DNA of 64,000 nt from Escherichia coli. GTDB lineage: Bacteria; Pseudomonadota; Gammaproteobacteria; Enterobacterales; Enterobacteriaceae. Below, one piece after another: positions 37,712-37,798 of the stretch (position 1 is its first letter; the number at the start of each line of letters is the position of its first letter). The translations under genes were made by a program, and so were the position numbers. A model generated the notes under the pieces. That model saw only the letters and a program-made list of their open reading frames with translations, ran no database searches and was not told the DNA's origin. The DNA is taken from assembly GCF_003334305.1 (NCBI RefSeq), contig NZ_QOWS01000002.1; one strand, written 5' to 3'.

Positions 37712-37722
37712 GTGAACATCTC

Positions 37723-37758
37723 CAGGCGGTCGTTCGACCGCCTGAGTTTTATCTTTTT
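37723..37758 (+). terminator. Hairpin and U-rich tract downstream of acpP (partial terminator/attenuator before fabF)
   Basis: CAGGCGGTCG-ttc-GACCGCCTG stem followed by AGTTTTATCTTTTT. Confidence 0.5.
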
Positions 37759-37798
37759 GTCCCACTAGAATCATTTTTTCCCTCCCTGGAGGACAAAC

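Follow-up and report, generated by a model that had tools for sequence, protein, structure and literature searches.

The stretch of DNA analyzed here (the window, 64,000 nucleotides) derives from the E. coli chromosome: of 5426 complete E. coli genomes, 5425 match 801 nt around the spacer between acpP and fabF at 99% identity or more, the ten best matches listed being 100% identical, and acpP and fabF are annotated there. On the + strand the gene order is plsX, fabH, fabD, fabG, acpP, fabF, pabC, mltG, tmk and holB. Since the acpP stop codon ends at 37711 and fabF starts at 37799, positions 37712-37798 are the entire 87-nt acpP-fabF intergenic spacer. K-12 MG1655 has an identical spacer, with acpP at 1151615-1151851 and fabF at 1151939-1153180; published 3′ ends were placed by taking the K-12 coordinate as the window coordinate plus 1,114,140. 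The features to which we refer are as follows.

33481-34551, + strand: plsX (open reading frame list).
Ending at 37264, + strand: fabG (open reading frame list).
37475-37711, + strand: acpP coding sequence, acyl carrier protein (ACP), 78 amino acids, stop codon TAA at 37709-37711 (open reading frame list; 100% match to the E. coli acpP annotation).
37712-37719, + strand: short spacer GUGAACAU between stop codon and hairpin (sequence; conserved in Enterobacteriaceae, longer in Yersinia).
37720-37746, + strand: terminator stem-loop, with core stem 37723-37731/37736-37744, loop GUUC at 37732-37735 and an optional 2-bp extension with a bulged C (folding, conservation, RegulonDB centre).
37747-37758, + strand: interrupted U-tract UUUUAUCUUUUU, with the mapped in vivo RNA 3′ end at 37748 (sequence; Term-seq; SMRT-Cappable-seq).
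37759-37776, + strand: variable A/U-rich linker GUCCCACUAGAAUCAUUU, with a -10-like TAGAAT at 37766-37771 (alignment).
37777-37798, + strand: fabF translation-initiation region, with the near-invariant block UUUCCCUCCCUGGAGGA and the Shine-Dalgarno (SD) sequence GGAGG at 37788-37792 (alignment of 16 Enterobacterales).
37799-39040, + strand: fabF coding sequence, beta-ketoacyl-ACP synthase II, GTG start (open reading frame list; annotation).
39062-39088, + strand: fabF terminator AAAAGGUCCGCUUGCGGGCCUUUUUUC, the end point of read-through acpP-fabF transcripts, 3′ end at 39088 (sequence; Term-seq 1153228; SMRT-Cappable-seq 1153228/9 for b1094 and b1095).

From the acpP stop codon onward the spacer reads TAA-GUGAACAUCUC-CAGGCGGUC-GUUC-GACCGCCUG-AG-UUUUAUCUUUUU-G... 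The initial annotation had described a strong stem followed by a U-rich tract 12 nt after this stop, and the sequence agrees: a perfect 9-bp stem, CAGGCGGUC/GACCGCCUG (37723-37731 with 37736-37744), with seven G-C pairs and a GUUC loop, begins at the 12th base past the stop codon. Two extra pairs, U37721-A37745 and C37720-G37746, are possible around one bulged C, and depending on this extension the U-tract, which is interrupted by A and C, lies 0-2 nt past the stem. The hairpin element folds at -18.6 kcal/mol, compared with -7.05 ± 2.2 kcal/mol in 200 dinucleotide shuffles (z = -5.2; 0/200 as stable), and the fold of the whole spacer gives z = -3.8. Within its 121-nt context the hairpin is retained in both the minimum-free-energy and the centroid folds, and no competing antiterminator fold was found there. 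A consensus terminator scan of 11 kb lists the site as terminator-like, with 11 candidates found overall against 12.3 expected in shuffles, i.e., no enrichment. A d'Aubenton-Carafa-type score is ambiguous, coming out anywhere between -14 and +28 according to the position assumed for the end of the stem. Read on the minus strand, the palindrome leads into GAGAUGU instead of a U-run, so the terminator is unidirectional, and a bidirectional terminator was rejected on this ground.

The element is the sole match to itself in the 64-kb window at up to three mismatches, and the spacer occurs at a single location in each of 5425 E. coli genomes; a dispersed repeat of the REP/BIME type was accordingly rejected. 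An Rfam scan of 36500-39200 at E ≤ 10 returned four chance-level matches only, none in or adjoining the spacer. The heptamer CCAGGCG occurs twice in this neighborhood, at 37702-37708 in the last acpP codons (His-Gln-Ala) and at 37722-37728 in the 5′ arm of the terminator, and the 3′ arm could also pair with the coding copy; because Yersinia and Pectobacterium lack the coding copy, the duplication is probably coincidental. One E. coli genome, strain 16843 (NZ_CP113503.1; locus L082, positions 31-114), carries two deletions here: GG is missing from the 5′ arm of the stem, and the second U-run is one T shorter. Its spacer identity of 96.6% is the lowest among the rows listed in the spread over 5425 genomes, 337 of which lie at 95-99%, and the change is either a homopolymer assembly error or a natural variant with a weakened terminator.

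Published transcript maps place a strong RNA 3′ end at this element. Term-seq (Adams et al. 2021, eLife, Supplementary file 1) gives a "primary" acpP 3′ end at K-12 1151888, with scores of 385,988, 90,555 and 104,281 in three condition tabs, which we took in file order as LB OD 0.4, LB OD 2.0 and M63. This end corresponds to window position 37748 (...CCGCCUGAGUU-3′), 2-4 nt beyond the stem. For fabF, the 3′ end is at 1153228 (window 39088), with scores of 4,708 and 969 in the first and third tabs (Adams et al. 2021), so that by these scores the acpP 3′ end is ∼80-100 times stronger than that of fabF. The initial annotation had named 3′-end mapping as a way to check its proposal, and this dominant acpP end is what the mapping contains; its expectation that acpP is expressed far above fabF is likewise in line with the scores and with reports that the cell contains far more ACP than FabF or the other Fab enzymes.

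SMRT-Cappable-seq, which sequences full-length 5′-triphosphate transcripts, places a termination site of type "terminator" at 1151887/1151888 (window 37747-37748), the nearest known terminator in RegulonDB being that of b1094, centered at 1151873 (Yan et al. 2018, Nat Commun, Supplementary Data); this center is window position 37733, inside the hairpin loop. Among single full-length primary transcripts from shared acpP promoters, some end at the site and others run to the fabF terminator (Yan et al. 2018). In M9 medium, the start site at 1151575 is represented by 215 reads, of which 81 stop at the site and 123 pass it, and the start site at 1151511 by 75 reads, of which 17 stop and 47 pass; in rich medium, 98/185 reads from 1151575 and 117/254 from 1151511 reach 1153229, just beyond fabF (Yan et al. 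2018). The operon units in the sheet of that table available to us comprise acpP, acpP-fabF, acpP-fabF-pabC and acpP-fabF-pabC-mltG, with starts between 1150933 and 1151575 (Yan et al. 2018). The partial termination with read-through that had been proposed from sequence is thus visible in molecules that both stop and pass, and the uniform coverage free of 3′ ends that would have spoken against it is not the pattern in these maps, where a strong 3′ end and read-through are both observed.

By two methods, Term-seq and SMRT-Cappable-seq, the in vivo 3′ end therefore falls in the U-tract, as it does at an intrinsic terminator. The 3′ end of an intrinsic terminator usually lies 7-9 nt past the stem, and the mapped end of the fabF terminator is 7 nt past its own stem; the acpP 3′ end, just 2-4 nt past the stem, thus needs 3′ trimming after release, or processing. 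This points to acpP RNA being shortened, once released, as far as the hairpin, and to a second role of the hairpin as a stabilizer.

The terminator scan also flagged an 11-bp hairpin farther upstream, CAGUGCCUGCAGCAUUGCAGGCACUG, at 33539-33568 inside the plsX coding sequence, which coincides with a strong Term-seq 3′ end at 1147708 (window 33568; score 79,571; class "internal plsX") and also with the SMRT-Cappable-seq end of yceD-rpmF transcripts. From these coinciding ends it follows that the rpmF transcript ends ∼60-90 nt inside the plsX codons.

How much transcription passes the acpP hairpin depends on the metric used. Steady-state 3′-end scores (4,708 vs 385,988) give a read-through of ∼1%, a figure that ignores RNA stability and other ends. 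SMRT-Cappable-seq counts give tens of percent; these counts are small, and as the library is depleted of short RNAs we would not take the ratio of stopped to passing reads as quantitative. That acpP is transcribed either alone or together with fabF was reported earlier (Zhang and Cronan 1996, as described in a paper citing it). An antisense peptide nucleic acid (PNA) directed at the acpP start reduces fabF mRNA, by ∼2-fold in Salmonella and by 3.5-fold in uropathogenic E. coli (UPEC), and fabF translation is not directly affected by it in a cell-free system with separate RNAs; a large share of fabF mRNA must therefore be continuous with acpP, past the hairpin. The half-lives of acpP and fabF mRNA in Salmonella are reported to be similar, at ∼3 min.

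The contribution of a separate fabF promoter bears on the weight given to this read-through. RegulonDB carries a fabF-only unit, and a review credits fabF with its own "strong" promoter; if so, read-through is less important for fabF. The one sheet of the SMRT-Cappable-seq operon table that we used holds no unit starting at fabF, and in the parts of those tables covered here there is no transcription start within the spacer; every fabF-containing unit in them starts upstream of acpP, with start sites at, for example, window positions 37371 and 37435. A scan for sigma-70 promoters returned no site within the spacer. We considered TAGAAT (37766-37771), the sole -10-like hexamer of the spacer, as a fabF -10 element and rejected it: its -35 is poor, it is not conserved outside close relatives, and no SMRT-Cappable-seq start matches it. 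A search of the published literature yielded nothing useful on the fabF promoter, on acpP Rend-seq/SEnd-seq or on intrinsic termination at acpP. Farther upstream, a promoter-like CTGTCA-17-TATGAT (36878-36906, inside fabG) precedes by 6 nt the SMRT-Cappable-seq start at 1151052 (window 36912), which is one of several starts inside fabG that feed acpP and acpP-fabF transcripts.

A second possible influence on fabF transcript levels lies within the gene itself. A Rho termination region has been listed at 1152434 (window ∼38294), ∼495 nt into fabF (Rho score 3.14, p = 6e-39), where downstream/upstream coverage goes from 169/1204 to 710/1610 with bicyclomycin (Adams et al. 2021). No Rho region is listed at the terminator itself; this one, 546 nt downstream of the acpP 3′ end, is the nearest. 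Part of the drop from acpP to fabF may thus be Rho-dependent; alternatively, the Rho score may be distorted, with acpP falling within its upstream 800-nt window.

We also asked what relatives carry at this position. Of 80 gammaproteobacterial acpP loci fetched, 76 have fabF as the next gene after a spacer of 72-319 nt, giving 77 sequences with the window. Taking as conserved a hairpin of -14 kcal/mol or lower that lies no more than 120 nt past the acpP stop and has at least four U among the 8 nt after it, we found hairpin and U-tail in 73 of the 77 sequences, compared with 13.5% (52/385) of dinucleotide shuffles of those spacers; the median hairpin energy was -20.3 kcal/mol in the real sequences and -7.4 kcal/mol in the shuffles. 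The stem sequence itself differs between lineages, being (C/U)AGGCGGUC-NNNC-GACCGCCU(G/A) in Enterobacterales, AAAACCGCAC...GUGCGGUUUU in Pseudomonas and GGGGCCGC...GCGGCCCC in xanthomonads, with other stems in further lineages. A position that is kept while the sequence turns over between orders is the pattern expected of a functional terminator. Within Enterobacterales the 9-bp core is paired in 16/16 sequences, and 92.7% of the alignment cells are paired over all 11 pairs when the 2-bp extension is included; no change in AGGCGGUC...GACCGCCU separates Escherichia from Yersinia, Photorhabdus or Budvicia, and it is the flanks that vary. The basal core pair is C-G in eight and U-A in seven Enterobacterales, which amounts to one compensatory swap, and the other core pairs (six that never vary and two that change on one side only) are uninformative either way. 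The distance from stop codon to stem varies, reaching 26 nt in Yersinia and 27-29 nt in Pseudomonas.

We thus conclude that the hairpin and U-tract are very probably the Rho-independent (intrinsic) terminator of acpP, efficient but leaky, reading into fabF. The features by which intrinsic terminators are recognized are present here, as established in this analysis or in the cited data: a G+C-rich stem-loop with a short loop and a stem length inside the usual ∼5-14 bp, an adjoining U-tract, in vivo 3′ ends and a structure kept in relatives, together with read-through on single molecules. We infer its independence of Rho and of other factors. An inverted repeat arising by chance and having no function is a reading to which we give next to no credence. 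The unenriched 11-kb scan shows that terminator-like strings of this kind are found about as often in shuffled DNA, but none of the 200 shuffles was as stable as this hairpin, its position is conserved across gammaproteobacteria, and the strongest local RNA 3′ end lies there by two independent methods, so that the published maps already refute chance.

Alternatively, one could envision the hairpin as a site of processing and stability rather than of termination, with mostly one acpP-fabF RNA being made, RNase E cutting the A/U-rich spacer, exonucleases trimming back to the hairpin, and the fabF part decaying faster. A 3′ end 2-4 nt from the stem fits exonuclease trimming against a hairpin, the linker after the U-tract is A/U-rich, Popella et al. 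mention cleavage within the spacer, and many SMRT-Cappable-seq molecules read through. However, the U-run abuts the stem in E. coli, as it does in the 73 of 77 diverse sequences, and a pure exonuclease block would not need one; RegulonDB lists the site as a terminator; and the similar half-lives in Salmonella argue against decay as the source of an 80-fold difference. As a replacement for termination, processing is therefore very unlikely, whereas trimming and protection probably add to termination, the two not being mutually exclusive. A terminator whose read-through is regulated, either by the ribosome at the acpP stop occluding the foot of the stem or by a factor recognizing the invariant stem, also appears unlikely. 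Such tuning would agree with the stop codon lying 8-11 nt from the stem foot, with the fall in fabF mRNA when acpP translation is blocked, with the different proportions of stopped and passing reads in M9 and rich medium, and with the invariance of the stem among flanks that vary. Each of these observations has another explanation or a counterpart against it: the distance between stop codon and stem varies among relatives, decay of a dicistronic RNA or Rho polarity on it would account for the PNA effect equally well, the read counts are too small to be reliable for a stop/pass ratio, and stem invariance can reflect purifying selection on a highly expressed essential gene. Neither an antiterminator fold in the 121-nt context nor an Rfam match was found.

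If the hairpin is the intrinsic terminator of acpP, a polymerase leaving acpP would transcribe a G+C-rich hairpin of 9-11 bp and then the U-run; the hairpin would form in the exit channel while a weak rU:dA hybrid occupies the active site, and most complexes would release their RNA. Monocistronic acpP mRNA would thereby accumulate to very high levels, with the hairpin at its 3′ end expected to shield it from 3′ exonucleases as well. The smaller share of polymerases that passes the site would read into fabF, and sometimes into pabC and mltG, with those that end after fabF stopping at the fabF terminator. Several features could account for the leakiness: the AG, or the bulged extension, that separates the perfect stem from the Us; the broken U-run, UUUU-A-U-C-UUUUU; and the ribosome finishing acpP 8-11 nt upstream, which may at times cover the foot of the stem. 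In this way the terminator would keep acpP mRNA high relative to fabF mRNA although both arise from the same promoters, and it would thus explain how these promoters can serve both ACP, which ranks among the cell's most abundant proteins, and the much scarcer FabF. It is also relevant to antisense antibiotics directed at acpP, under which fabF mRNA falls along with that of acpP.

The distal part of the spacer holds a further conserved sequence. The block UUUCCCUCCCUGGAGGA (37777 to ∼37793/37794), which stops 5 nt short of the GTG, is nearly invariant in 16 Enterobacterales and is absent in the loci outside that order. It contains the SD sequence GGAGG, six nt before the fabF GTG, and, about 2-4 nt upstream of it, CCUCC (37781-37785), the same pentamer as the core of the 16S anti-SD. 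The sole substitutions in the block among 16 genera are at 37785-37786, the loop of a putative 4-bp CCUC/GAGG mini-hairpin; because the CCUC/GAGG pairs never vary, the alignment is uninformative for or against it, and the fabF ribosome-binding region folds no more stably than shuffles (z -0.7 to +0.9). Judged from sequence, the block could either mask the SD by forming a small hairpin or serve as a pyrimidine-rich element in translation. A longer SD-occluding helix, UUUGUCC (37756-62) with GGACAAA (37791-97), is not supported: it has no compensatory changes, is not above shuffles, and has one arm deleted in Superficieibacter. The GTG start of fabF is conserved in all sampled Enterobacterales, in most Pseudomonas/Stutzerimonas loci, and in Aeromonas, Oceanisphaera, Shewanella and others, while xanthomonads and relatives of Halomonas have ATG. 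That a weak start codon has been kept over such distances suggests, on comparative grounds, selection for limited FabF translation.

These observations could be joined into one scheme, which we regard as unlikely: fabF would have no effective promoter of its own in standard growth, leakage through the acpP terminator, perhaps tuned by the ribosome completing acpP 11 nt upstream, would be its sole transcriptional input, and CCUCC...GGAGG would act as a second, translational brake. Were this so, the 87-nt spacer would be a two-layer dosage device for FabF, an enzyme that is toxic when overproduced.

The terminator is already known in E. coli, being catalogued in RegulonDB, with its 3′ end mapped and its read-through seen on single molecules; the acpP terminator of K-12, as recorded in RegulonDB, Term-seq and SMRT-Cappable-seq, is the same element in another strain, without difference. 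It resembles leader attenuators and riboswitches in that a terminator hairpin stands upstream of a gene dependent on read-through, but it differs from them in that its spacer contains no antiterminator, leader peptide, ligand-binding domain or Rfam match and follows a full-length essential gene. With REP/BIME stabilizers it shares a stable 3′ hairpin that probably shields the upstream cistron from 3′ exonucleases; unlike them, it is single-copy and has a U-tract. Leaky terminators within operons that set expression ratios are found between rplL and rpoB and inside rpsU-dnaG-rpoD. In contrast to the rplL/rpoB type, we know of no regulatory factor or antitermination system, established or indicated, for the acpP terminator, and the downstream gene here, fabF, has also been credited with its own promoter in older literature. 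The acpP terminator is nonetheless like the rplL/rpoB and rpsU-dnaG-rpoD type in its arrangement, a hairpin and U-tract between a highly and a less expressed gene that share promoters, and for acpP both the terminated and the read-through RNAs have been seen.
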